Shown here: positions 1 to 60,261 of the stretch, in pieces
How the letters are laid out: every line of letters starts with the position of its first letter
How positions within the stretch are numbered: position 1 is the stretch's first letter
From: Heterodontus francisci
Taxonomy: Eukaryota
Assembly (NCBI RefSeq): GCF_036365525.1
Contig: NC_090380.1
Span: 77,749,784-77,813,783 of the forward strand
DNA length: 64,000 bases
Direction: 5' to 3'
Notes under the pieces: model-generated
Seen by the model: the letters and a program-made list of their open reading frames with translations, nothing else
The model's database searches: none
What the model was told of the DNA's origin: nothing
Program-made: the position numbers and the translations under genes

Positions 1-2680
1 TGCAATAACTTGAAGAGAAAGTCACCAGCATGCCAGTCCTTGGGTATTATAATCTCGAGGAAGAAGTCACTCAGCAATGTGATGCATCTCAAATCAGGAC
101 TTGGAGCAGCATTGCTGCAGAATAGATAATTAGCCACGGATGAACAGCAGCAGAGATGGGATATGCAGTGATTAAGAAAGAACTCCTAGCGATTGTGTTC
201 ACCTCTGACAAATTTGAAGCTTACATCTATGGCTGAAATGTGGTGAATATTGAAATAGATCACCATCCACTAGAATCAATCGTTCTCAAGCCACTAAACA
301 GTGCATCTAAGAGCCTTCAAAGAATGTGAAGTCTCTAAAAATTTTGTCTGAAAGTATCTAATAAGGGGAGAAGATCTTCCTAGCAGAAACACTGAGCAGA
401 GCGTCACTGCCAGATGTTAACCCCTGTGATTCTGTACATGAGCTGAAAGAAATTGATTATTGCAGATCACTTCCAGTTGGAGGTTCACACTGGCAACAAC
501 TTAATCATGCTGCAGCGGATGACCCAGTTCAGAAGCGACTGCATGTTATTATTCTGAAAGACTGGCCTGGAATCAAGTCAGTAGTACTTGAACGCCTCCA
601 TCCTTACTTTGACTTCTGAGATGGACTAACTGTCCAAGGGGATTTGACATTCGGAGGACATCAACTTGCAGCATTGCATAAGGAATTAATGTCAGTCGCT
701 CATTCGACACACATTGGTATAGAAGGTTGTATCCAGAGAGTTTGGGACATCCTTCATTTGCCCAGGATATTAACAGAGCTTAAACAATACATTGCAAACT
801 GTGATATCTATTTGGTTCATTGGAGCTTTCCAAGTAAGAAACGATTAATACATCACAAGATTGTGGCTAGGCCTTGGTCAAAAGTTGAGGCTGATTTTCA
901 TAAGGTACATGGCCGTATCCTACTCATTTTGTTGACTATTACAGTAACTTTATCTCAGTAGCCAGCCTCACTTCTGTCCCTACAAAGAGTTCTGAGGGAA
1001 CTCCAAGAGATGGTTACAAGACTTGAGATACCAGACATCCTAGGAATGAATAACGCTCCATTATTTGCGTCAGCAGAATTTGGTGTTTGCCAAGACGTGG
1101 GGATTTAAATATGTGACACCATCACTTCACTACCTGCAGTCTAATAGCAAAGCCAAGCTAAGAATGCTGGCAAGCCTATCAAATGACTCCTCGTGAAATG
1201 TAAAAGTTCAATCAGAGTTTCTAGCTCTATTAGATTGTCACAATACAATGAAGGTGTAGGTACAAGTCCAGCACAGAGACTTATGGGTCAGAGGTGTAAG
1301 ACATTACTTCCTATATCGGAAACACTCTTACAGCCAAGATATTCAATGGAGGAAGACACTTGTGTGCTTGTCAGCATAAAGCAACATCAGCAGTATTACT
1401 ATGATAGGAGTGCTAAACCACTTCAAGAAATACACGCTGGTGATACAGTGCTGATGAAACTCCATGGTAGGACTGGCTTTACAGGTGAGTGACTGCCCAG
1501 TGCCCATGGTCAATTGACTTTGACAATAATGGCATTGGCCTGAGAAGAACTGGCCTGTCACCAAAGTCTGCTTCCAACAGACTGTCGTGCTCCTGAAGAC
1601 GAGAAAACTTCAAGCTTCAAAAGCAAGTACCCAAACCCATGGATAACACTGAGGATCTTGTGAACCATGTCCTTATCAGTGACGAGCAGTGAATGGAGCT
1701 TCTTGGAAGTTGAAGCTCATGAAAACATGTTTACAATCAACCATCAGAGATAGCAGGCTATCTGCACTGGCCATCTGTCTATCAAGAATGATGTGCTTCA
1801 ACATATCTTGATGAACAAAGCTTTTTTTATATATATAGGTTATTGTTATTTATTAGCTTAGTGTTTAATGTTTAGTTTGTCATTTAACTATATTTTTTGA
1901 TATAATTTATTGCTTAATTTATAAACTTTTGAGATTACAGCTTTATTTCTGCAATTTTCACTAATACTACTACATAATTAAAGAAAGGGCACCAATATAC
2001 ACATTTACCAATGGTGCCATTTTCCATAAAGCCAGTCCTGCTTCCTGGCCACAGTACTTGGACCGCTGGAATTGTACATGTGTGGTGGGTCCTAGAAATA
2101 ACTCTGCAAGTCAGAGACTCTTCACACCGCAGGAATCGCCATTGGTTGGTTGAGGCCGATGAGTCACCTTTAAACAAAATTCCCAACATTGAGGACTTTT
2201 CTGAAACACAGGTCTCCAGTGATCCCCTGAACTATCCACAGTTTCCAAAGAAAGAAACAGCAACACTTGAAACACCTGGTAGTCAGACATCAAAGACTGC
2301 AGATTGGGAAGACATCAGCCTCCATCTCGACTGAAGGACTATTTGTTTTTTTTTTTACAGTGTAGCTTGTGTTTGTGTGCTTTGTTTCAGTTAAATTTCA
2401 GAGTTACTCTGTTTTTTGAAAAAACTCAAATAAGTAGATTGTACATCTTTTTCTTTTAAGATGAAAGATGTGATGCAGGGCCTACTTTTGCTACAGCTGT
2501 GTCCACTCTGAAGCAACATTATGGGATTAATCATGTGACATATCAGGTGATTCCTTTGTTTTCTCTTTCCCCTATGCAGTTCAGTAAGCAGCAAACACTT
2601 GCAGCTCCTAAAACTACATAACTCAACTTGTTATTTTTGTATACATAAATTAAACATGGATATTCTAACAACTTAATGGC
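1..2680 (+). mobile_element. Degenerate Gypsy LTR retrotransposon, 3' part (RNase H/integrase remnants, PPT, probable 3' LTR remnant)
   Basis: Interrupted frames give typical Gypsy pol pieces: CDASQ, YAVIKKELLAIVF, AHSTHIGIEGC...C..C (integrase zinc finger), RPWSKVEADF, SPAQRLMG, RRNRH. A purine tract at about 2458-2468 is followed by TG. Many stops and frameshifts; the 3' end is approximate. Confidence 0.8.
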
Positions 2681-2789
2681 TACACCTACTATTTAAGAGG
2701 AGGTATGGACAGAAAGTACAGTTTGGGATCAAACAGGATGCCAAGCTTCCACCACAATCAGCTGAAAGAATAAATTTATTCTTTTATCA

Positions 2790-3170
2790 AAACCAGAAAA
2801 TGCTGGAAATACTCAGGAGGTCAGGCAGCATCTGTGGAGAGAAAAACAGAGTTAGTGTTTCAGGTCTGTGACCTTTAGTCTGTTTAGTGGCAATAACCTG
2901 GAACTCGCTGCCCATGAGGATGGTGGAAGCGGAGACAATCAATTACTTCAAAAGGAAATTAGATGGCCACTTGGAGGAAATAGACTTGCAGGGCTAGGGA
3001 TCGAGCAAGGTAATGAGACTGACTGGCTAGCTCGTTGGAGAGCTGGCATGGACTCGATGGGAGAATGGCCTCCTTCTGTGCTGTAAATGACTCTCTGACC
3101 TGCTGAGTATTTCCAGCATTTTGTTTTTGTTTCAGATTTCCAGCATCAGCAGTATTTTGCTTTTGTATTA
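2790..3170. repeat. Inverted (head-to-head) Penelope-like terminal fragments with a CR1 3' fragment in the centre
   Basis: The arm CAGAAAATGCTGGAAATACTCAG...GGTCAG at about 2795 is mirrored by CTGACCTGCTGAGTATTTCCAGCATTTT at about 3095. The middle resembles a CR1/HER1 3' end. Confidence 0.7.
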
Positions 3171-3404
3171 CTCCTTTATTTATTTGATCCAACTTGTCAT
3201 CATACCCAAGTGTTCTATACTCTTGGTCCAATCATTATCAAAGCATTAATCACAATTTTATTTAGACCACCCACCAATTTAAATACTTCATAATGTTTCT
3301 CGCTTGATCATCTTTGTTTTAATAATTCGGCTTATTCTACCTAATTTCTTACAAACGATCGAGTCCAAAATTATGTAGCAGTGCCTGTCTATAGCAAAGC
3401 TTAC

Positions 3405-3516
3405 CTCAGCGCGGGTTCCATCAGCGTGATTTTCCTTGTCATCTGAATCTCGCATGTGAACTCGCTGCTGTAAGCGGCCTGAGCGGCGAAGGACTAGGGA
3501 ATGTGAATCAACGGTG
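3405..3516 (-). CDS. Coding exon 3 of the unidentified KEN-box gene (C|TVDSHSLVLRRSGRLQQRVHMRDSDDKENHADGTRAE)
   Basis: Polypyrimidine acceptor ending aaatccag and donor GAG|gtaagc. 112 nt, CpG-retaining, phase-compatible (2 to 0) with the upstream exon. Confidence 0.65.
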
Positions 3517-4117
3517 CTGGATTTATAGAAACAAAACAAAAAATAGCACAAAAGTCCATATTAGCTCTTGCACTAGTCACTTTAATGTAACACGGACTCA
3601 AGAACAATGTATCCATGTACCACCAGGGCAAAGCAGAGAATTCCAATGTACATCACCGTTCGCTCATCCATTCAGAAATACGTGAGTAGAATATTTCCTT
3701 CCATTCAGGAATGCCATCAAGAATTGTAGCAAGATCTGACAGTAGAGAACTACTAATTACAACATTACAAGTGGACTAGTAATAATCCCTATATGAGTGA
3801 TGCAACATCTGACTTGACAGGTTCACAGCCTTGTTGGAACCTACTTTGGCTTCCCGAGACTAGGATCTCCTGGTTCCCTACTTTCAAAAAACAGATACAT
3901 GTTTTGTTATTGTTTTCATGACTAACTGCAAGCATCATTAAGTTTCAATCTCCTATACTTTAGCTGTGGTGTGGTATCCGTAAACATTTTCTGTTTGGTG
4001 TGTTTTTTTAAAGTATGAATATGAAAGAGCAACAGAATAAGATTTCAGTACATCTTCAGACATTCTACAACATTATATTTTGAGCTGAAAATGTTAGTCT
4101 TTTGTGATTTAAAAAAA

Positions 4118-15974: not shown

Positions 15975-16594
15975 TAAAAGCAAAATACTGCGGATGCTGG
16001 AAATCTGAAACAAAAATAAGAAATGCTGGATTCACTCAGCAGGTCTGGCAGCATCTGTGGAAAGAGAAGCAGAGTTAACGTTTCGGGTCAGTGACCCTTC
16101 TTCGGAACTGACAAATATTAGAAAAGTCACAGATTATAAACAAGTGAGGTGGGGGTTGGGCAAGAGATAACAAAGGAGAAGGTGCAGATTGGACCAGGCC
16201 ACATAGCTGACCAAAAGGTCACAGAGCAAAGGCAAACAATATGTTAATGGTGTTTTGAAAGACAAAGCATTAGTACAGATTAGGTGTGAATATACTGAAT
16301 ATAGAACATCAGCAAGTGCAAACCTGAAGAAAAACAACCTGAAAAAAACAGTGGGTAAGCAAACTGAACAAACTAAGATGAAATGAAATAAATGCAAAAA
16401 ATGTAGAAAGGAATGCAAAAAAAAGGAAGAAAAAATAACTAAAAATGACTAAAAATGAAAGTAAAGTGGGGGGTTGTCATGCTCTGAAATTATTGAACTC
16501 AATGTTCAGTCCGGCAGGCTGTAGTGTGCCTAATCGGTAGATGAGATGCTGTTCCTCGAGCTTGCGTTGATGTTCACTGGAACACTGCAGCAAT
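15975..16594 (-). mobile_element. Penelope-like element 3' terminal fragment
   Basis: Near-identical to 58162-58790. Encodes the C-terminus ...EHQRKLEEQHLIYRLGTLQPAGLNIEFNNFRA*. Confidence 0.85.
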
Positions 16595-17049
16595 GTTGTT
16601 TTTGCTTTGTTATCACTTGGTATGAATTAAACAAGCTGAGGGAATGCATGTGATCAACAGACGGAACTATCTGAATTCCATGAGTTGCTATTCCCAGATT
16701 TAGTAACAGTGCAATCAGGGATAGTTATTTATAAACTGGCAGTGGTAAAGATAAAAGAGGACTAAATGAAGGTCAACACACTGTCAATGTTTGCTTTGCT
16801 AATGAACAATTAACAAAGTGGGATCCTCAACTTTTCAGATGTTAATTGTTTGTTCATTGAATACTATTTTACTCTCTGGATAATTGTAATATTTATTTTC
16901 ATAGTATTTTGGTTTATGAGCATTACTTGCAGTTTCATTAATGCTGTGAGGTGATAAGATCAGCATCCTCTAGGCCTGAATTTGAGACTCCGCAGGGACA
17001 CTGAGGGAAACACAAGAGGAATAAACCTCTCAATAATATCAGCATTACA

Positions 17050-18469: not shown

Positions 18470-18749
18470 CTTCAATCATTAACTGAAGAAGTGAATTCCA
18501 CAGCTGCAAAAATGTCTGTGTAAAAATATTTCTGCTGCTCCCTGTCATAAATCTCTTGCTTGCATTTAATCTTATATCTGTGTCCCCTTATTCTAAGCTC
18601 CACAATCACTAGAAATAGTCTGTTTCTATCTACTGCTTCACATCCCTTCATAATCTTAAACACCTCTGTTAAATTATCACATTGCCTCCTGTATTCTAAC
18701 AAAAGCAGTCTCAAATTTCACGTCTTTCTTCTTATTTGCATTTCCTTAT
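18470..18749 (-). mobile_element. CR1-like LINE 3' fragment, the target of the LTR element; continues at 22049-22090
   Basis: LEYRRQCDNLTEVFKIMKG...RIRGHRYKI. The sequence resumes after the LTR element (ACCAGGCAACGTTCTTGTGAGTCTG). Confidence 0.75.
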
Positions 18750-19010
18750 TGTTGTGTGATTGCCTTTAAGAGTAATGTACCTTTAAGATCTTAGTATGCT
18801 AATGAGCTAAATACCAGGACGTAGTCATGTGACTACATGCCAGTGCCACTCTAACTGTAAAACTAAGAGGCAAGACTTGCAAACAGATAGCATCTGTACT
18901 GTATATATTAGTTTGCTGTTTAATAAACCCTTCTGAGATCTTCAACCATCTGAACTCCAAGCATCTCATTTATGTTGCATCAGACAACATAAAAGAAGCT
19001 TTTCATTGCA
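18750..19010 (+). repeat. 5' LTR (261 bp)
   Basis: TGTTGTGTGATTGCC...CATTGCA. Direct repeat of 21782-22043; contains TATATA and AATAAA motifs. Confidence 0.93.
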
Positions 19011-19025
19011 TGGTGGCAGCTGTGG
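19011..19025 (+). other. Primer-binding site, tRNA-Leu(AAG/TAG)-like
   Basis: TGGTGGCAGCTGTGG matches the complement of the tRNA-Leu 3' end (TGGTGGCAGCGGTGG, recalled sequence) at 14/15 positions, immediately after the LTR CA. Confidence 0.75.
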
Positions 19026-19750
19026 TGAGAAAAAAAAATCCAAGTTTGAAGACCACAGGGAAACAGCTTTTAAAAATGACTTTCCTACAGCCACTGGAGA
19101 GAGAGAGTTCAAAACATACTGACTCAAACAAGAAAAACAGAAGAACTTACCTCAAGCTGGAGAAGACAGAGCGCTGACTGACAGGCTGCGAATCAATCAC
19201 TGTGATCCAGTGACTCAGTGTGCTGTCGGTAGAGAATTACCAGTTGAAAAAAAGAGAAGCCTTGAAGTCCTTAAAAGATTGATTTCTTTTTCTCTCAAAG
19301 GCTCCCTGAGAGAGTTAAAAATATGGGGAAGACCCAATTCTTTTCTTAGGCTGATTAAGTCCGCACCATTACAGGAGGCACCCAACAGCAAAAAAGCACA
19401 GGAATCCTCCATTCATGCAGCTCGCAGCTGGAGCTATAAATAGAAACAATTGAATCATTCCAATTCACTCAACTTGAGCTTTTAAAAAACTCATAAAACC
19501 ACGCAACCAGGAAGAATTGCCTGTTGAATGGCTATATAAATAAACTGCAAAAACGGCACTTGAAATACCTATTGCTTAGCTGTGTAAACAGAACAGGCTT
19601 TGTGCTGAAAGCTAGACAAACAGACAAGCTGCTGCTGTCAATCAAATCAGCCAAAAGAGTTTCTTAAAAGGGAAACCAGTACAGAGTCACAGAACCAGGT
19701 CTTAAAGCAAGTTCTTAAAGCAAGCTTTAAAGCACAAAAACAGCAGGAAC

Positions 19751-21180
19751 ATGGATACCAATTTTCCTAGTATGAACTGGAAAACCTTGGATATCCTATC
19801 CAACCAAGTAATCACAGAACAAGAAAAACAAGCTCTAAAAATATTAATAGCAATTAGAAATGAAGGATTGCACAGTATCAATATCTGGAATATCTGAACA
19901 GGACCAGAAAGATCTCTCAAAGATATGGAAAGTGCAGAAAAATCAGCTCCAATTCAGAGTGAATTTTCAAATGCATCACCTGGAATTGATGTCCTACAGG
20001 CAACAGCCATGGGAATCAATAGACTAGTTCATCAGCAGATGCTGAAGTAAGGGCAACTAATGCGATTTATCAGAAGCTGAGCTGTAAGACCGAATAATGG
20101 ATCGTGATCGTATCAACACCCATTGAAGCATTCCTGAAAGACCTCTTAGGGAAAAAGAAAGGTCACAGCATCAACCTACTGCTGGAAGATGGCAGGAAAT
20201 ATGAAGACATTGTAGCCAGACAACAGCACCTGCAAGCACCAGGTACAGCCAACAGTTTCGTCACTTTAACAAAGTCGAAAAGAGCAAGCAAGATGTGTGG
20301 TAAATGTGGTTGGTCCCATTCACAGCGAAGTTGCCCTGCATTTCGAGACCTGTGCAAGGCGTGCGATGTAAAAGAACACCGGGCCCGCCTATGCAGGAAT
20401 TCTGGCTCCAAAAACAAAGCCAGAAGTCATGGTTGGACGCAAACAAACAGAGAACACAGCAACAGCAGCAAGGAAAGCGCCAGAGACCAGCATAAACGCA
20501 AACCGATACACAAAGTCCACAGCAAAACAGTCCTCAGACAAGACTCAGGTAGGAGAAAGTCTCAGACGAGCAAGCATTCCACATTGTGAAGCTGACACAC
20601 CATATCGATGAAGTCCAACAAATGAAAGTTTTCACCACCATCAATATCACATGCCCAAAGAAAGCTGGCAAACAGACACTGAAGGTCAAGATGTACCAGA
20701 GTCATTGGAAGTCTATGATACAATCGACAACATAACAAAATTTGAGGAAAACTTTTTTCACCCAGAGGGTGGTTGGAATCTGGAACACACTACCTGAAGG
20801 GATGGTAGAGACAGAAACTCTCACAACATTTAAGAAGTATTAAGATGAGCACTTGAAACACCATAGCATACAAGGTTACAGTCCGAGTGCTGGAAAATGG
20901 GATTAGAATAGATAGGTGCCTGATGGCCAGCATGGACACGATGGGCCAAAGGGCCTGGTTCTGTGCTGTATAACTCTATGACTCTAACTGCCAGGTTATC
21001 TGCTTACAACGGGTCACCCATCCCTTTCAGTGGCACACTAACAATGCAATGCAGATATGGCAAGTCTGCATTTAAACCACAATTGTTCTACCTAGTAGAC
21101 GTGAGCAGACCAGCAGTGGCAGGACTACCAGCGTGTAAGGACCTCAACATCATCACCAACCACGAGAGCATTGCCAAGAG
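19751..21180 (+). pseudogene. Degenerate gag and aspartic-protease region of the LTR element
   Basis: Start MDTNFPSMNWK; double zinc knuckle CGKCGWSH...CPAFRDLCKACDVKEHRARLC; protease C-terminal half RLSAYNGSPIPFSGTLTMQC...FYLVDVSRPAVAGLPACKDLNII. The catalytic DTG segment after LKVK appears deleted. Confidence 0.85.
20732..20985 (+). mobile_element. CR1/HER1-type LINE 3' fragment inserted into the protease region
   Basis: TTTTTCACCCAGAGGGTGGTTGGAATCTGGAAC...CTGTGCTGTATAACTCTATGACTCT. Removing it restores QSTTARLSAYNG. Confidence 0.85.
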
Positions 21181-21184
21181 GAAA

Positions 21185-21681
21185 TCTCCAAGGACCGGAA
21201 CCCACTCGCTGACTCTGATGGAAACCCAGCAACAACACAACTATGCCGTGTCTTCACCTCAGTTCTCTAGAGAACCACCAGCACCACAATGAGCCAGAAT
21301 GGACAGGTACCTCCATGAGACCAAGTACTCTTTCCCCAACAAGTCCTCAACCATGAGCCCCAAGCCTTCAGACGCGGAGGATGAGGAGAGGCTAAAAACA
21401 CGCAATGCCCTGAAAGGCAGAGGAGGAATGAGTTGAAGCATTGTCAGTTGGCTCTTCGAGATGAGGTGCTGGAATTTTCCAAGAATGTCAAGGCCTCAAA
21501 GGTGGTCATCTTGAGAAAATCAACAGAGTATGTTAGCAGGCTGAAGGCAGAGCAAAGGAACCTGAGTGCAGAGAGGGAGAAACGTCAGAGAGAACAGCAA
21601 CAGATGAGACACAAAGTCCCTGAGCAAGAGTTATCAAACCACCAAGACCACCTTTGGACTTTTGAGCCTCTATTCTTGTAA
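21185..21681 (+). pseudogene. Myc-family C-terminal region (Myc box IV, NLS-like stretch, bHLH-leucine zipper) with one stop and one frameshift
   Basis: QQQHNYAVSSP...PPAPQ*ARMD...SPKPSDAEDEERLKTRNAL[1-nt deletion]ERQRRNELKHCQLALRDEVLEFSKNVKASKVVILRKSTEYVSRLKAEQRNLSAEREKRQREQQQMRHK. Collinear with the c-/N-Myc exon 3 product (HNYAAP, SDxED, LERQRRNxL, KAxKVVILKKATxY). Confidence 0.93.
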
Positions 21682-21781
21682 ATTTCATAATCTCTAGCCA
21701 TGTGTAAATAATTTTGATGTTATCTAATGTTATGTATTTTTACAGTTAACATACAAGTCTTACCTTTGGAAAGAAGGGGGA

Positions 21782-22043
21782 TGTTGTGTGATTGCCTTTA
21801 AGAGTAATGTACCTTTTAAGATCTTAGTATGCTAATGAGCTAAGTACCAGGACATAGTCATGTGACTACATGCCAGTCCCACTCTGTAACTGTAAAACCA
21901 AGAAGCAAGAACTGCAAATAGATAGCTCTGTACTGTATATATTAGTTAGCTGTTTAATAAACCTGTTTGAGATCTTCAACTATCTGTATTCCATGAATCT
22001 CATTTAGGTTGCATTAGACAACATAAAGAAGCTTCTCATTTCA
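21782..22043 (+). repeat. 3' LTR (262 bp), preceded by PPT 21768-21781
   Basis: Direct repeat of 18750-19010. Confidence 0.93.
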
Positions 22044-23154
22044 TTTATACCAGGCAACGTTCTTGTGAGTCTGTGCTGTACCCTTCCTCTGAGCTTAAGA
22101 TAGGAGAGATTTTTCCATGGGGTAGATTTTCTGTGGGGGTTCCTCGATCTCTTGCCATAACTTCGGTGGAGGATTGTTGGGAATCTGGGAAAATAGCGTA
22201 GATGGCCATTTATGCCATTTTCCTGGGATTTCTGCCAATCTTACAGCGGGAGATTGGGACAACCCCTACAAAAATTCCTGGCACAAGTTTAACTTCCCTT
22301 TTCTTCCCCAGTTGGATATTTGGCACTTTGACCTCTGTCCTGTCCATGGGCTGGTCAATAAGGCGACCAATTAAGCTGGCTACTAACCCTCCACCCTCAC
22401 TCACAGAGGCAAAGATTTGCTGGCAACTAACCACTGCTGGGCCCAAATGCAGTCTGTCTTCCCAATCTGATTCTAACATAGCTGCACAGAGTATAAAACT
22501 CTTGAAAGAGGCATTTGTTTCTCTCAAATTGTATAATGGATCTATTTTATGAGTATGAGGAGAATAAAAAATTAAGAGAGAAATACATTTCTGCAAGTTT
22601 AAATAAAAAGAAGTCAGGCTGTGCTGTATTAGCTTTAAGTTGGTTGTCACATTTGCTTTGGACATGGAAAAATTGACCATAGAGAAAGTTGAAACCAGTA
22701 AGTGGTAATACTTTTGTGGAAAGAAATAACATCCTATTAAAAATCCAATTACAAAGATTAGATCCAAAATGTTGCTTAGTGCATAGATGACTTTTTTGGT
22801 TTTATTTATACGTTAGATTTTGAATAGTGGCTTATGGCAAAAATAAAATGTGGAAAATGTAGTATGTGGATCTAATGGGTCAAAGGGAATACTGAAATAC
22901 TATTCAGCATGGGCTATCGGTATTTATGGAGGCCTTGCTTAGACTGTCTTAAGCACACTGATGCTCTGTAGATGATAATAGATTAAGAAAGAAGGATGGG
23001 TTCCATAGATGGGATAATCAGGAATATGGCATTAATGTGAAAAAATCACAGATCAAACCACCATAATGTAATAGACCTGTTGTGAAATCACCATTCTGTG
23101 TTTAGTTTCTGAGAATTCCAACTGTGGTAATAACATTTTAGAAACAAATTTTTT

Positions 23155-23640: not shown

Positions 23641-24438
23641 AAGTTAGTTTAGGTGAAAGGAATGAGCAGCAACCAGTTGATAGCACCCAGTTGATGAGCT
23701 TAAAGGGTGATTGTACCAGCCCCTGGACATTGGGGGTTGTGGCAGGGGGGCCCTGAAAATGCCTCCGTTGGAGACCCGCCATGGGCCTCGACGCTGGGAA
23801 GACCCTGTCCCATATTAACGGTGGTGGCGAGGCCTCGTGGTGGCCCACCCACCACTCAGCAATGGGACCATCACTTCAATATGATAGTTAATTAAAATTA
23901 GGAATAATTACTTACCTTGCCGCGCCGGCCGTCCCGCTCCCATATTACGGTCAGTGGCTGGCACTCCCACGCCGTCCGATCCCCGACCACTGAAGAATTT
24001 TGGAACACTGGTGGGGAGGGGGGAGCAGGTATGTTTTCAGGGCAGGGGGGAGCAGCATTAAATGATTCTGATTGCTCGAGGGGGTGATAGGAAGGGGTAA
24101 AGGTAAAAGTTTCTGAACTTTGGGGCAGGGGAAGGTCAGGTACTGAAGGTAACTATTTTGGGGGGGGAAGAGGGCAGGAATGACATGTAAGGCTATTGGG
24201 GGAGTGGAGAGGGAGTGGAAAGTTTTTTTTAATTAGTTTTAATAATTTTAGATTAACTGTTTCTTTAAAGATTTAACTTGTCATCTTCGTTTCTATAAAC
24301 TCTTTTACATTGAATTACATTTAATTAGGCCAAATATGGCTACACTGGCATAGTCTCAATTATAGATGCAAGCAGGCAGCTTTTCAGGACTTTTCTTTAA
24401 AAATTTAAACTCTGATCAAGATAAAGAAATGTACTTAC

Positions 24439-26346
24439 CCGTTTTCGAGCTCTCCAAGAAAAGCTTCCATGTGAGTAACGTTTCCTTTCCCAGACAAGAA
24501 GGACCATGCCACGCTCTTGCAGTAAAGTGGAAGAGACCTCATTCATCAACACAGACACTTGGGACAACTGAGCTAGGCTATAGCTGTCCAAGAAGCTTGC
24601 AATGTGCCTGAGTATCTCAGATGGAAGACTGCTCAAACTAAGCATATTTTTCCCATTTTCCCATATATTTCGATCCTTGTGACTGTTCTGACACAGAACT
24701 TCAGGAACATCTGGTTTGACTGCAAACGTATTTTGGTGCTGGTTATAGATCACCTTAGCCTTCTGCATGGAGGGGCAGAATCTCCGTTGTGAGTAGGAAC
24801 AGCCAAGATAAGCCAGAGGACATCTCTCTACCATCCATCCATTCAGGCATGACTGAATGTCAGCATGCACATTCTTGAAGTGTGATGAAAACTCATCTCG
24901 CCTGAAGAAATGGTGACACATAAATGTAAAGGCAGAATTCAATTTGTTGTGTCTTTTAGTGATACACTCTGTCTGTAGTTGCAGATATAGACAAGAGGCT
25001 TTCTCTGCTGCTACATCGGCCAAAGATACATCACGGCCAAAAGGAGCAGAGGGGAAAGAATATGTCTGAGTGGCAAAATCAATGGTCTGTCCATCAGTGG
25101 CTTTTGTTTCTGATATAACATGGCCTTTTAGCACTTTTTCCAAATAACATAGTAATGAAGTAGTAACTTCATCATTTTGATGACTCTCTGTGTCCAGGTC
25201 AGAAGTGTCCACAGCTTTGTTCTCCTTTTTGACCTTACTTGACAATGAATCTCCAATAAGTCTACGTTTGGCACGGTAGCTGGTAGGAACTTTAAATGTA
25301 TTGACAGTTCTAACATCCTGGGCCTCCAGTTTCCCATAAACAAAGTCTTTTTCTTTGGGTGTGCATGCTTTCATCTGGCCAAATCGAATAAGCATACTGC
25401 CATGATGCACCAAATACATATTGAAGTGTTTTGTATCCATCTGAGCTTCTAGCCTTTCCAAAACACCTTCCTGCCAAGGAGCTTCACCTGTCTTTTCTAC
25501 TGATGCTGACAATGCTGGGGCTGACATAATGGTTTTATTTTCAGATAAATTGTTCTTTTTTTCAGTGCTGGCTGATGAAGTCTCACTCTTCTGCTTCGTT
25601 TTAACTTTTGTAGTTTTCTCTTCAATGGCACAGCTACCTTTATCCTTACTGAAAATGTGCTCCCAATTTGAATACATAGCTAAACATCCTACCTCATTGG
25701 ATTCTGCAAGAGCTTTTTGTTCTTCCAGGGTGAGTTCAACCATCTCTTCCAAATCTGCGTTGACTTCATCATTTCCATCTTGATGTATTTTTGTTCCTGT
25801 TTCAAGAAAAGTCCTATCCAAAGATACAGAAGCAACCAGCTGTCCTCCCACTGCCTCCTCTTCATTCAAATCCAAATCAGTTTCATCAACTGTCTCGGCC
25901 ATCTCTGGGAAAAGTTCAGCCATCTTCACTGAATTGAAAAAAATCCCCTGATCCCTAATTGCAGTTCCTAAGTCCAGATCCTCTGGATTCAAGGATTCTT
26001 TGATGGCACTATTTTTTAATGTTATGTCATCTTCATTAGCTGGCCAGCGGTTCCATTGCATTGAACAGCACACAATGCTGGCAGGACAGACACGAAGGTG
26101 CTTGGAGAGTTTGTGGCGTGCCATGAAGAAGGGGCAGCCAAAGGCTGCATTTAGGCAAGGGACATGTTCCAGTGGACATAGTAGTGTATGTTCATTCTCC
26201 TTACACTGGTGAAAAACAGCACCACACTTGGAAGGGCAACTGATCACCAAACAGGAAACAGAAGGTTCAAAAGACTTTTTGCAGTGCTGACTATAACACT
26301 TTTCACAGTGCATGTGCAGTCGAGGAGTCAGATTTCTATTTCTAAT
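24439..26346 (-). CDS. fbxo40: F-box only protein 40-like, large exon (TRAF-type zinc finger, central domain, F-box)
   Basis: 636-codon open frame: HCEKCYSQHC...CGAVFHQCKENEHTLLCPLEHVPCLNAAFGCP...HLRVCPASIVCCSMQWNRWP; FRRDEFSSHFKNVHADIQSCLNGWMVERCPLAYLGC; F-box LSSLPSEILRHIASFLDSYSLAQLSQVS. Acceptor ttctatag, donor CGG|gtaagt, both phase 0. Confidence 0.95.
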
Positions 26347-58161: not shown

Positions 58162-60261
58162 AAAAATAAAAGCAAAATACTGCGGATGCTGGAAATCAAA
58201 CAAAAACAAGAAATGCTGGAATCACTCAGCAGGTCTGGCAGCATCTGTGGAAAGAGAAGCAGAGTTAACGTTTCGGGTCAGTGACCCTTCTTCGGAACTG
58301 ACAAATATTAGAAAAGTCACAGATTATAAACAAGTGAGGTGGGGGTGGGGCAAGAGATAACAAAGGAAAAGGTGCAGATTGGACCAGGCCACATAGCTGA
58401 CCAAAAGGTCACGGAGCAAAGGCAAACAATATGTTGATGGTGTGTTGAAAGACAAAGCATTAGTACAGATTAGGTGTGAATACACTGAATATTGAACAGC
58501 AGCAAGTGCAAACCTGAAGAAAAACAACCTGAAAAAAACAGTGGGTAAGCAAACTGAACAAACTAAGGTGAAATGAAATAAATGCAAAAAAAGATTGTAA
58601 AAAATGTAAAAAGGAATGTAAAAAAAAGGAAGAAAAAATAACTAAAAATGAAAGTAAAATGGGGGGCTGTCATGCTCTGAAATTATTGAACTCAATGTTC
58701 AGTCCGGCAGGCTGTAGTGTGCCTAATCGGTAGATGAGATGCTGTTCCTCGAGCTTGCGTTGATGTTCACTGGAACACTGCAGCAATCCCAGGACAGAGA
58801 TGTGAGCATGACACACCAATTTCCACCCTTCTCTCACCTTTACATGGTCCATCTCTGACACTTCCCTTCCCTTCCTCAAATTCTCTGTCTCCATCTCTGG
58901 GGATAGGTTGTCTACTAATATCCATTATAAGCCCACCGACTCTCACAACTACCTCGACTACACTTCTTCACACCCTACCTCCTGTAAGGACTCCATTCCA
59001 TTCTCCCAGTTTCTCCGTCTCCGACGCATCTGCTCTGATGATGCTACCTTCCATGACGGTGCTTCTGATATGACCTTTTTCCTCAACCGAGGATTTCGCC
59101 CCACTGTGGTTGACAGGGCCCTCAACCGTGTCCGGCCCATTCCCCGCACCTCTACCCTCACCCCTTCCCCTCCCTCCCAGAACCGTGACAGGGTTCCCCT
59201 TGTCCTCATTTTCCACCCCATCAGCCTCCATATCCAAAGGATCATCCTCCGCCATTTCCGCCACCTCCAGCGTGATACCACTACCAATCGCATCTTCCCC
59301 TCCCTTCCCCTGTCAGCATTCCGAAGGGATCGTTCCTTCCGCGACACCCTGGTCCACTCCTCCATTACCCCCACCACCTCGTCCCCGTCCCATGGCACCT
59401 TCCCCTGCAATCGCAGGAGGTGCAATACCTGCCCATTTACCTCCTCTCTCCTCACTATCCCAGGCCCCAAACACTCCTTTCAGGTGAAGCAGTGATTTAC
59501 TTGTACTTCTTTCAATGTAGTATACTGTATTCGCTGCTCACAGTGTGGTCTCCTCTACATTGGGGAGACAAAGTGCAGACTGGGTGACCGCTTTGCGGAA
59601 CATCTCCGCTCAGTCCGCAAGCAGGACCCTGAGCTTCTGGTTGCTTGCCATTTCAACACTCCCCCCTGCTCTCATGCTCACATCTCTGTCCTGGGATTGC
59701 TACAGTGTTCCAGTGAACATCAACGCAAGCTCGAGGAACAGCATCTCATCTACCGATTAGGCACACTACAGCCTGTCGGACTGAACATTGAGTTCAATAA
59801 TTTCAGAGCATGACAGCCCCCCATTTTACTTTCATTTTTAGTTATTTTTTCTTTTTTTTCTTTACATTCTTTTTTACATTTTTTACAATCTTTTTTTTGC
59901 ATTTATTTCATTTCATAGTTTGTTTAGTTTGCTTACCCACTTTTTTTTCAGGTTTGCACTTGCTGCTGTTCAATATTCAGTGCATTAACACCTAATCTGT
60001 ACTGATGCTTTGTCTTTCAACATACCATTAACATATTGTTTGCCTTTGCTCCGTGACCTTTTGGTCAGCTATGTGGCCTGGTCCAATCTACACCTCCTTT
60101 GTTATCTCTTGCCCCACCCCCACCTCACTTGCTTATAACCTGTGACTTTTCTAATATCTGTCAGTTCCGAAGAAGGGTCACTGACCCGAAACGTTAACTC
60201 TGCTTCTCTTTTCACAGATGCTGCCAGACCGCTGAGTGGTTCCAGCATTTCTTGTTTTTAT
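58162..60261 (+). mobile_element. Penelope-like element: RT C-terminus, GIY-YIG endonuclease and 3' end (about 58811-60261), preceded by an inverted copy of the 3' end (58162-58810)
   Basis: STNIHYKPTDSHNYLDYTSSHP...IPFSQFLRLRRICS; C...RCNTC; FTCTSFNVVYCIRCSQCGLLYIGETKCRLGDRFAEH. 14-bp TSD TCCATCATAACCTC (58148-58161 and 60262-60275). Confidence 0.93.

Follow-up and report, generated by a model that had tools for sequence, protein, structure and literature searches.

A non-autonomous Ty3/Gypsy element of the shark Heterodontus francisci carrying the 3' half of a spliced mych mRNA

The element in the window and its Myc piece

The window, a stretch of 64,000 nucleotides of the Heterodontus francisci genome, contains at 18750-22043 on the + strand one dead copy, about 3.3 kb long, of a non-autonomous Ty3/Gypsy LTR element. 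The stretch that an earlier note had singled out as a captured Myc (21185..21681) is part of this copy, the features of which are as follows.

18745..18749: target-site duplication, 5' copy, 5 bp, four of five bases identical to the 3' copy
18750..19010, + strand: 5' LTR, TG...CA
19011..19024, + strand: primer-binding site immediately 3' of the 5' LTR, which we take to be of the tRNA-Leu type
19751..20590, + strand: gag, disrupted by stops and frameshifts, recognised in translation (72-83% identity to other copies)
20591..20731, + strand: protease, first part, without the segment that bears the catalytic motif in other copies
20732..20985, + strand: 3' fragment presumably of LINE type, a later insertion that splits the protease and is private, being missing from other copies
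20986..21166, + strand: protease, last part, in frame with the Myc piece
21166..21615, + strand: captured mych exon 3, nt 50 to about 521, with what we take to be the box IV region and an NLS-like motif, followed by bHLH and leucine zipper
21620..21681, + strand: last bases of the integrase tail, in another frame after the type B/C deletion, with a stop 16 nt beyond the integrase stop
21768..21781, + strand: polypurine tract
21782..22043, + strand: 3' LTR, TG...CA
22044..22048: target-site duplication, 3' copy

The LTR features of Ty3/Gypsy elements, namely TG...CA LTRs, a primer site, a polypurine tract and a target-site duplication, are all found. Duplications of 5 bp also flank two other copies, L143 (5/5 bases) and L123 (4/5), the other 8 of the 10 loci displayed being unreadable in this respect. 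The gag part contains two zinc knuckles at 20296-20394, of the forms C-X2-C-X3-H-X4-C and C-X2-C-X4-H-X4-C. A Pfam search gave no match for gag or protease, and the identity of the protease is based on the motif in other copies of the element. Sequence of the inserted fragment recurs elsewhere in the 64-kb window. The K2P distance between the two LTRs is 0.082 with CpG sites masked, and at nine other loci LTR-pair distances range from 0.07 to 0.25, some of these pairs perhaps being mispaired. If substitution rates of sharks are near 1e-9 per site and year, the insertions are tens of millions of years old.

That the flagged stretch derives from Myc is confirmed by a Pfam HLH match at 21385-21678 (E 9e-09) and by a nucleotide identity of 84.7% with exon 3 of one of the host's myc paralogues. 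The N-terminal half is missing, as had been proposed, the piece starting at exon 3 nt 50. Its limits have to be redrawn, Myc sequence running from about 21166 to about 21615 and the bases at 21620-21681 belonging to the integrase tail in another frame. The TGA at 21290-21292 and the loss of one nucleotide near 21412 are both present, and the basic-region His position is Arg. The statement that only two point lesions separate the piece from an open frame was too optimistic. The Myc part has also undergone a 21-nt in-frame loss and has lost the Lys of the NLS, and upstream of it lie a broken gag, a protease without its catalytic segment and the insertion at about 20732-20985. The note had further read the DNA-contacting Glu and Arg as kept, which is correct for Arg but not for Glu; before the slip the window reads R-N-A-L-K, with Lys in place of the host Glu, and this Lys is the state of the family, not a peculiarity of the window.

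Elsewhere in the window there is an open exon of 649 codons on the - strand (24397-26346) with a TRAF-like zinc finger and an F-box, presumably of the FBXO40/FBXO30 type. Some 2.3 kb downstream of this exon, and read from the other strand, comes the Myc element, which is probably situated in the next intron. Long inverted-repeat arms, 95-97% complementary and 0.9-1.7 kb apart, are found at 58232-60230, and a related repeat at about 16000-16600.

Family size, RT-bearing relatives and donor gene

Copies were counted over the whole genome with 21-nt motifs at up to two mismatches, each accompanied by a control. The motif in the Myc piece gave 1,898 matches (control 0), one of them presumably the host gene, which leaves at least 1,897 Myc-bearing copies, and the junction motif of the window's type gave 1,098 (control 0). 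For the protease motif there were 3,133 matches (control 16) and for that on the RT side of the capture point 1,343 (control 10), so that the RT-bearing relatives, which share the LTRs, number at least 1,343. The Myc motif recovers 91 of 113 copies selected by score and 10 of 19 selected by position, and the corrected number of Myc-bearing copies is about 2,400-3,600; candidate numbers near 3,000 from a first look were not taken as copy numbers, and three duplicate loci were left out of the analysis. The first 30 loci on C1 with an exact protease match divide into 19 with Myc and 11 that run on into pol. Three of these 11 (3/30 of the positional sample) have Myc-less pol deletions with breakpoints that are all different, and no amplified Myc-less derivative was found in the 30 loci.

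The full RT-bearing relatives, about 5.3 kb long and with the same LTRs, have gag, protease, RT, RNase H and integrase in one frame. Pfam identifies RVT_1 and then RT_RNaseH in L136, and Integrase_H2C2 and rve further 3' in L143. The order protease (by motif only), RT, RNase H, integrase is that of Ty3/Gypsy elements. An env gene is absent from the full-length relatives, the integrase tail passing straight into the 3' LTR. A Mag-like affiliation is suggested as a lead by the 5-bp duplication (seen at three loci), the size of 5.3 kb and the single frame. The Mag lineage is described as having a 5-bp target duplication, a length of about 5 kb, often one ORF and a tRNA-Leu or tRNA-Ser primer site (PMC3286476). 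In seven Myc-bearing loci (L021, L024, L025, L042, L107, L117 and L119) an LTR lies unusually near upstream; these are leader/gag deletions, and their ends differ. Among public gene models, six (P0008-P0013) that go by the names 'myc' or 'N-myc proto-oncogene protein-like' are copies of the element, most of them starting in protease or RT sequence.

In the host genome, of 6.0 Gb, 119 of 1,624 candidates were scored, and three of them are myc-type genes. That on C16 is the one to which the window piece has 84.7% identity, and it is 88-91% identical to 11 other copies; those on C5 and C3 match the copies in short patches only. Exon 2 of the C16 gene is identical to a Heterodontus francisci protein named 'myelocytomatosis oncogene homolog'. 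In a protein tree restricted to mych, c-myc and mycn, with the copies read with X at breaks, all 19 sampled copies cluster with the host mych (support 99/93, and 100/99 for the mych clade), separately from the mych sequences of six further cartilaginous fishes and distant from the host c-myc and mycn. The donor is mych. The earlier note had suggested a mycn- or mych-like paralogue and not c-myc; both c-myc and mycn are ruled out as donor by the identity comparison and the protein tree. A decayed genomic myc duplicate or an L1-type processed pseudogene is likewise ruled out, as the piece lies between LTRs, replaces pol and is without host 3' UTR. A mycl-like gene was absent among the 119 candidates scored of 1,624, where it may be masked by element copies.

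Because the copies nest with the host mych and apart from that of six other cartilaginous fishes, the capture is placed within the lineage of this shark. A search with one copy gave extra Myc-like models from Heterodontus francisci alone (6 of 73 matches). The protease-Myc junction of the window's type is also bridged by contigs of a second organism, in two studies, and the family therefore predates that split or is common to both. Fragments of the element are present in sequencing runs guessed to be RNA, which give no measure of transcription. At several positions of L043 (G000:C16:100.017 Mb) the copies match the mych of other sharks where the present host gene differs, and the copies thus preserve an older state of the host gene.

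Reading frame, base-reading residues and decay

In the Myc-bearing copies a part of the mych mRNA sits where RT, RNase H and the integrase core stood. Type A, the longest form, contains the last 191 nt of exon 2 and exon 3 without the 1,707-nt intron, and the exon 2-exon 3 join is seen in 70 of 129 Myc-bearing loci. A capture of exon 3 at the DNA level is ruled out by this join. For the longest copies each of the 39 non-self matches scored gives the same start, nt 345 of the 535 in exon 2, and even in these copies the transactivation domain with Myc boxes I and II is absent. The capture junctions between pol and mych have microhomologies of 7 nt (5') and 6 nt (3'), both codon-aligned. The intron is lost, the internal ORF is replaced and microsimilarity is present at both switch points, and these are the marks of an LTR-mediated retrocopy.

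Further subfamilies start at exon 2 nt 382 (type B, 9-nt match), at exon 3 nt 50 (type C, that of the window, 1-2 nt match) and at exon 3 nt 58 (type D, 7-nt match). The modal spacing from protease to Myc is a multiple of three in each type: 423 in A (10/36 copies), 294 in B (11/30), 45 in C (44/50) and 69 in D (2/3). Type E is a single copy, out of frame overall. Of the copies as they stand today, 18 of 36 in type A and 14 of 30 in type B are in frame. Behind the zipper there are two amplified tail deletions in frame and one, in types B and C, that is out of frame and after which the frame ends, in the window, 16 nt past the integrase stop. Among chance microhomologies the in-frame share is 0.31-0.38 for those of 4-6 nt and 0.51-0.62 for those of at least 7 nt (18/29 and 26/51 cases). 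With these shares the probability that four of four amplified 5' junctions are in frame is about 0.06, or 0.02 if the 3' junction is included, the single type E copy being left out. At the locus L073 (G000:C20:47681017-47684197) a type B Myc element stops in exon 3, and a second protease followed by a full RT adjoins it without a gap; this locus, a Myc-bearing and an RT-bearing form joined in tandem or by recombination, was left out of the frame and selection counts.

The ancestral frame was a single Gag-protease-Myc-integrase-tail. From A-like to C-like, the whole range is also found among RT-bearing copies, in gag-protease as well as in the 3' end, and the Myc element accordingly kept pace with its helper over time or recombined with it. 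The nucleotide tree of gag-protease is star-like, with only three supported clades.

Only 3 of 109 copies have an exon 3 free of both stop and frameshift. In the RT start and exon 2 all 48 indels are singletons; exon 3 has 212 indel events in 128 copies at 174 distinct places, and those seen at least three times are scattered over the types and lie mostly in base runs. Stops concentrate at three CpG-containing codons (53/124, 28/114 and 26/117 copies) in all three main types, and the TGA of the window is at the first of these. No subfamily has an inherited stop or frameshift, the lesions being private or recurrent. The earlier note had allowed that the family consensus might keep the stop and the frameshift; both are absent from it. 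A subfamily sharing a frameshift, considered for 11 of 43 copies that are one base short, is ruled out, the losses being at different sites. Since the lesions were not inherited, the spreading element had an open Gag-protease-Myc frame, and decay came afterwards, copy by copy. The 0-fold/4-fold diversity ratio within types is 1.00 in A, 0.96 in B and 0.77 in C (P 0.02).

The basic region of the host mych equals that of c-Myc, in which His and Glu read the E-box (10.1101/2020.05.04.076190). Exact motifs over the genome, with the host gene included, number 682 with Lys and 44 with Glu at the base-reading Glu. By type, Lys stands there in 20/29 copies of A, 25/28 of B and 46/52 of C, and Glu is retained in 6/29, 0/28 and 0/52 (2/54 of type C under a looser gap rule), with no linked site that would group the Glu-keeping type A copies. 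The basic His is retained in 18/28, 10/27 and 11/55 copies of A, B and C, and the Lys of the NLS in 25/35, 3/30 and 0/54; the basic-region Arg is retained. The His and the NLS Lys were lost later than the Glu. CpG decay as the origin of the Glu-to-Lys change is ruled out, as there is no CG at that codon in any type. In most copies, judged by these residues, the Myc piece should fail to read its DNA target. At the base-reading Glu of E47 the same substitution (p.E555K), and no other, is described as strongly dominant negative (PMC11286708), and Myc without the His and Glu still binds Max, does not read the E-box and is dominant negative when over-expressed (10.1101/2020.05.04.076190).

The evidence on selection on the Myc product is split. 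Of the non-CpG changes in Myc between types A and C, 7 are nonsynonymous and 2 synonymous, in keeping with the neutral share of 0.78 (P 0.63). The dN/dS near 1 that the earlier note associated with a passenger sequence is accordingly found, on the sole branch that could be scored and with low power. The net 0-fold/4-fold ratio for Myc is 0.57 (P 0.24) from A to C and 0.99 from B to C; for the protease region it is 0.22 (P 0.025) from A to C, 0.07 (P 0.003) from B to C and 0.84 from A to B, and gag shows no significant departure. In the bHLH-zipper the ratio from B to C is 3.0, on very few sites. These distances cover types A, B and C, with type D and E copies left out. Five of about nine element-lineage changes fall at columns invariant in 12 mych proteins (P 0.09), and those of type C comprise an invariant Leu of the zipper, in which there are two changes in all, and two invariant residues of the box IV region. 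Six amplified deletions all lie outside the bHLH-zipper (P 0.028, on a simple model of uniform placement), the 42 HLH codons have zero element-lineage changes (P 0.056), and two of three base-reading residues have changed (P 0.009), or three of five with the NLS included (P 0.001), these P values all being post hoc and modest.

Possible roles of the captured piece and its relation to known systems

The structure of the element and the history of its capture can be given with little room for doubt. RT, RNase H and the integrase core gave way, at two in-frame microhomologies, to the 3' half of the spliced mych mRNA; beside its RT-bearing relatives the element multiplied to thousands of copies, the shorter subfamilies arose by further deletions at microhomologies with the frame kept, and the copies then decayed each by itself. 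The capture itself was probably a double template switch by reverse transcriptase on co-packaged mych mRNA, and RT and integrase would have been supplied in trans by the RT-bearing relatives with the same LTRs. We incline, with slightly more confidence than doubt, to the view that the Myc piece in this helper-dependent element was a translated cargo, kept in frame for the element's own sake, and no working transcription factor. An RNA translated to about its natural stop might have been copied better, either through use of its own Gag-protease in cis or through escape from nonsense-mediated decay. The residues for E-box reading and import may have been lost by drift or in order to disarm the Myc piece. 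This view of a translated cargo is favoured by the deletions behind the zipper, which are mostly in frame at a place where Myc cannot benefit. Against it stand the sparing of the bHLH-zipper, the unchanged HLH beside changes in two of three base-reading residues, and the lack of an amplified Myc-less derivative in the positional sample. The purifying selection seen in the protease region may be that of the helper lineage and not a sign of use in cis, since it is absent from A to B and gag is not significant.

The sparing of the dimerisation surface would fit a Myc piece selected as a dominant negative, which we regard as possible but doubtful. An HLH-zipper released by the protease would take Max from Myc or from its repressors, and would alter the state of the germ cell in favour of the element. 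The Glu-to-Lys change, in 682 of 726 genome-wide matches and no CpG artefact, would suit this role, the more so as the same substitution is strongly dominant negative in E47 (PMC11286708) and as Myc without His and Glu still binds Max (10.1101/2020.05.04.076190), the host basic region being that of c-Myc. The HLH is unchanged and the six amplified deletions all miss the bHLH-zipper, and a one-frame Gag fusion would be expected to yield Gag-level amounts. However, the overall N:S is neutral, type C has altered an invariant zipper Leu and two invariant residues near box IV, the bHLH-zipper ratio from B to C is high, if on very few sites, and the P values are modest and post hoc. Any benefit would, moreover, be common to the RT-bearing elements in the same cell. 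The neutral N:S would also be expected if the frame and the Myc protein were irrelevant and a short derivative simply outran its helper, for which intact LTRs, primer site and polypurine tract would suffice, the in-frame junctions arising from codon-aligned microhomologies. We think this unlikely. Microhomologies of at least 7 nt are in frame often enough, the junction of the single-copy type E is out of frame, and only about half of the type A and B copies are in frame now, although the indels responsible are singletons; but the frame is kept at the 3' capture junction, in two amplified tail deletions and at all four of the amplified 5' junctions, and no subfamily has inherited a stop or frameshift.

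The earlier note had also offered a tether that steers particles to E-box chromatin and a module that takes Gag into the nucleus. Early type A copies mostly keep the NLS Lys (25/35) and a minority of them keeps the Glu (6/29), and with Lys and Arg in place of Glu and His the basic region is more positive and might bind nucleic acid unspecifically. Such roles are nevertheless very improbable, because the Glu, and then the His and the NLS Lys, were lost in the bulk of the family. The tether is opposed by the base-reading Glu, which is Lys in 94% of the matches over the genome, and by loss of the His in types B and C, and the import module by the near absence of the NLS Lys outside type A. For types B and C, the most numerous, both are largely refuted, and the protease would in any case be expected to cleave the Myc piece off Gag.

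Textbook accounts of how retroviruses transduce oncogenes centre on the capture of myc. In avian MC29 and related gag-myc viruses a spliced myc lies in frame behind gag, pol is lost and a helper is needed, and v-myc, with its transactivation domain and its binding to the E-box retained, is transforming. The shark element likewise has Myc in frame behind gag in place of pol. Unlike v-myc, its piece is without the transactivation domain and has lost E-box reading, the donor is mych and the spread was in the germ line. Dominant-negative variants of bHLH proteins are known in the Id proteins. Others are E47 p.E555K (PMC11286708) and Myc HEA (10.1101/2020.05.04.076190), in which the base-reading Glu (and His) is lost and the dimerisation surface kept; these were assayed in cells, and a transposon carrier does not figure in the available portions of those accounts.

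As a class, LTR-mediated retrocopies in animals are described as products of a double template switch with a median microsimilarity of 6 bp (Tan et al. 2016, PMC5131818). The shark element resembles them in that part of the internal ORF is replaced by a partial spliced mRNA with microsimilarity at both switches, and in that the product behaves as a non-autonomous LTR element. It differs from the cases treated in the available part of that source, which are young and of few copies, in its thousands of copies and its successive subfamilies with the in-frame fusion kept at each step. Maize Bs1, cited there, is also an LTR retrotransposon that forms a chimera with pieces of host mRNA, but it is from a plant and has three donor genes, whereas the element described here is from a vertebrate and has a single donor, a paralogue of a proto-oncogene. 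Vertebrate germ-line LTR elements with captured host mRNA are also known from crocodilians, in ERVs that hold KIT-ligand or nectin3 in nine and six copies, and their captures were dated by presence common to related species (Chong et al. 2014, PMC4299795). They are reported in that source as retroviruses with near full-length ORFs under purifying selection, in contrast to a Gypsy element without env, with half a gene and no overall purifying selection.

Capture of mRNA by LTR elements, gene capture by ERVs and gag-myc viruses were thus already known. Unusual here are the scale, the repeated in-frame joins and the near-fixed loss of E-box reading. Our literature search found no description of the shark Myc element, and repeat libraries may list the family without comment. 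The copies mislead annotation, as the six gene models show, and will disturb read mapping to mych and copy counts in this shark. It may also be observed that thousands of sense-strand mych fragments in a transposon could feed small-RNA silencing that would match host mych mRNA as well.

LTR-mediated retrocopies in animals have been known as rare events of few copies, and a Gypsy element has here given thousands of germ-line copies, a large dated record in which it can be asked whether a captured cargo was selected, disarmed or merely carried. On any of these readings it is surprising that the E-box-reading Glu has been replaced by Lys almost to fixation. If the dominant-negative reading were true, a captured half-Myc mRNA would have become a Gag-level inhibitor of the Myc/Max network that helped the element to spread, the mirror image of the capture of v-myc.
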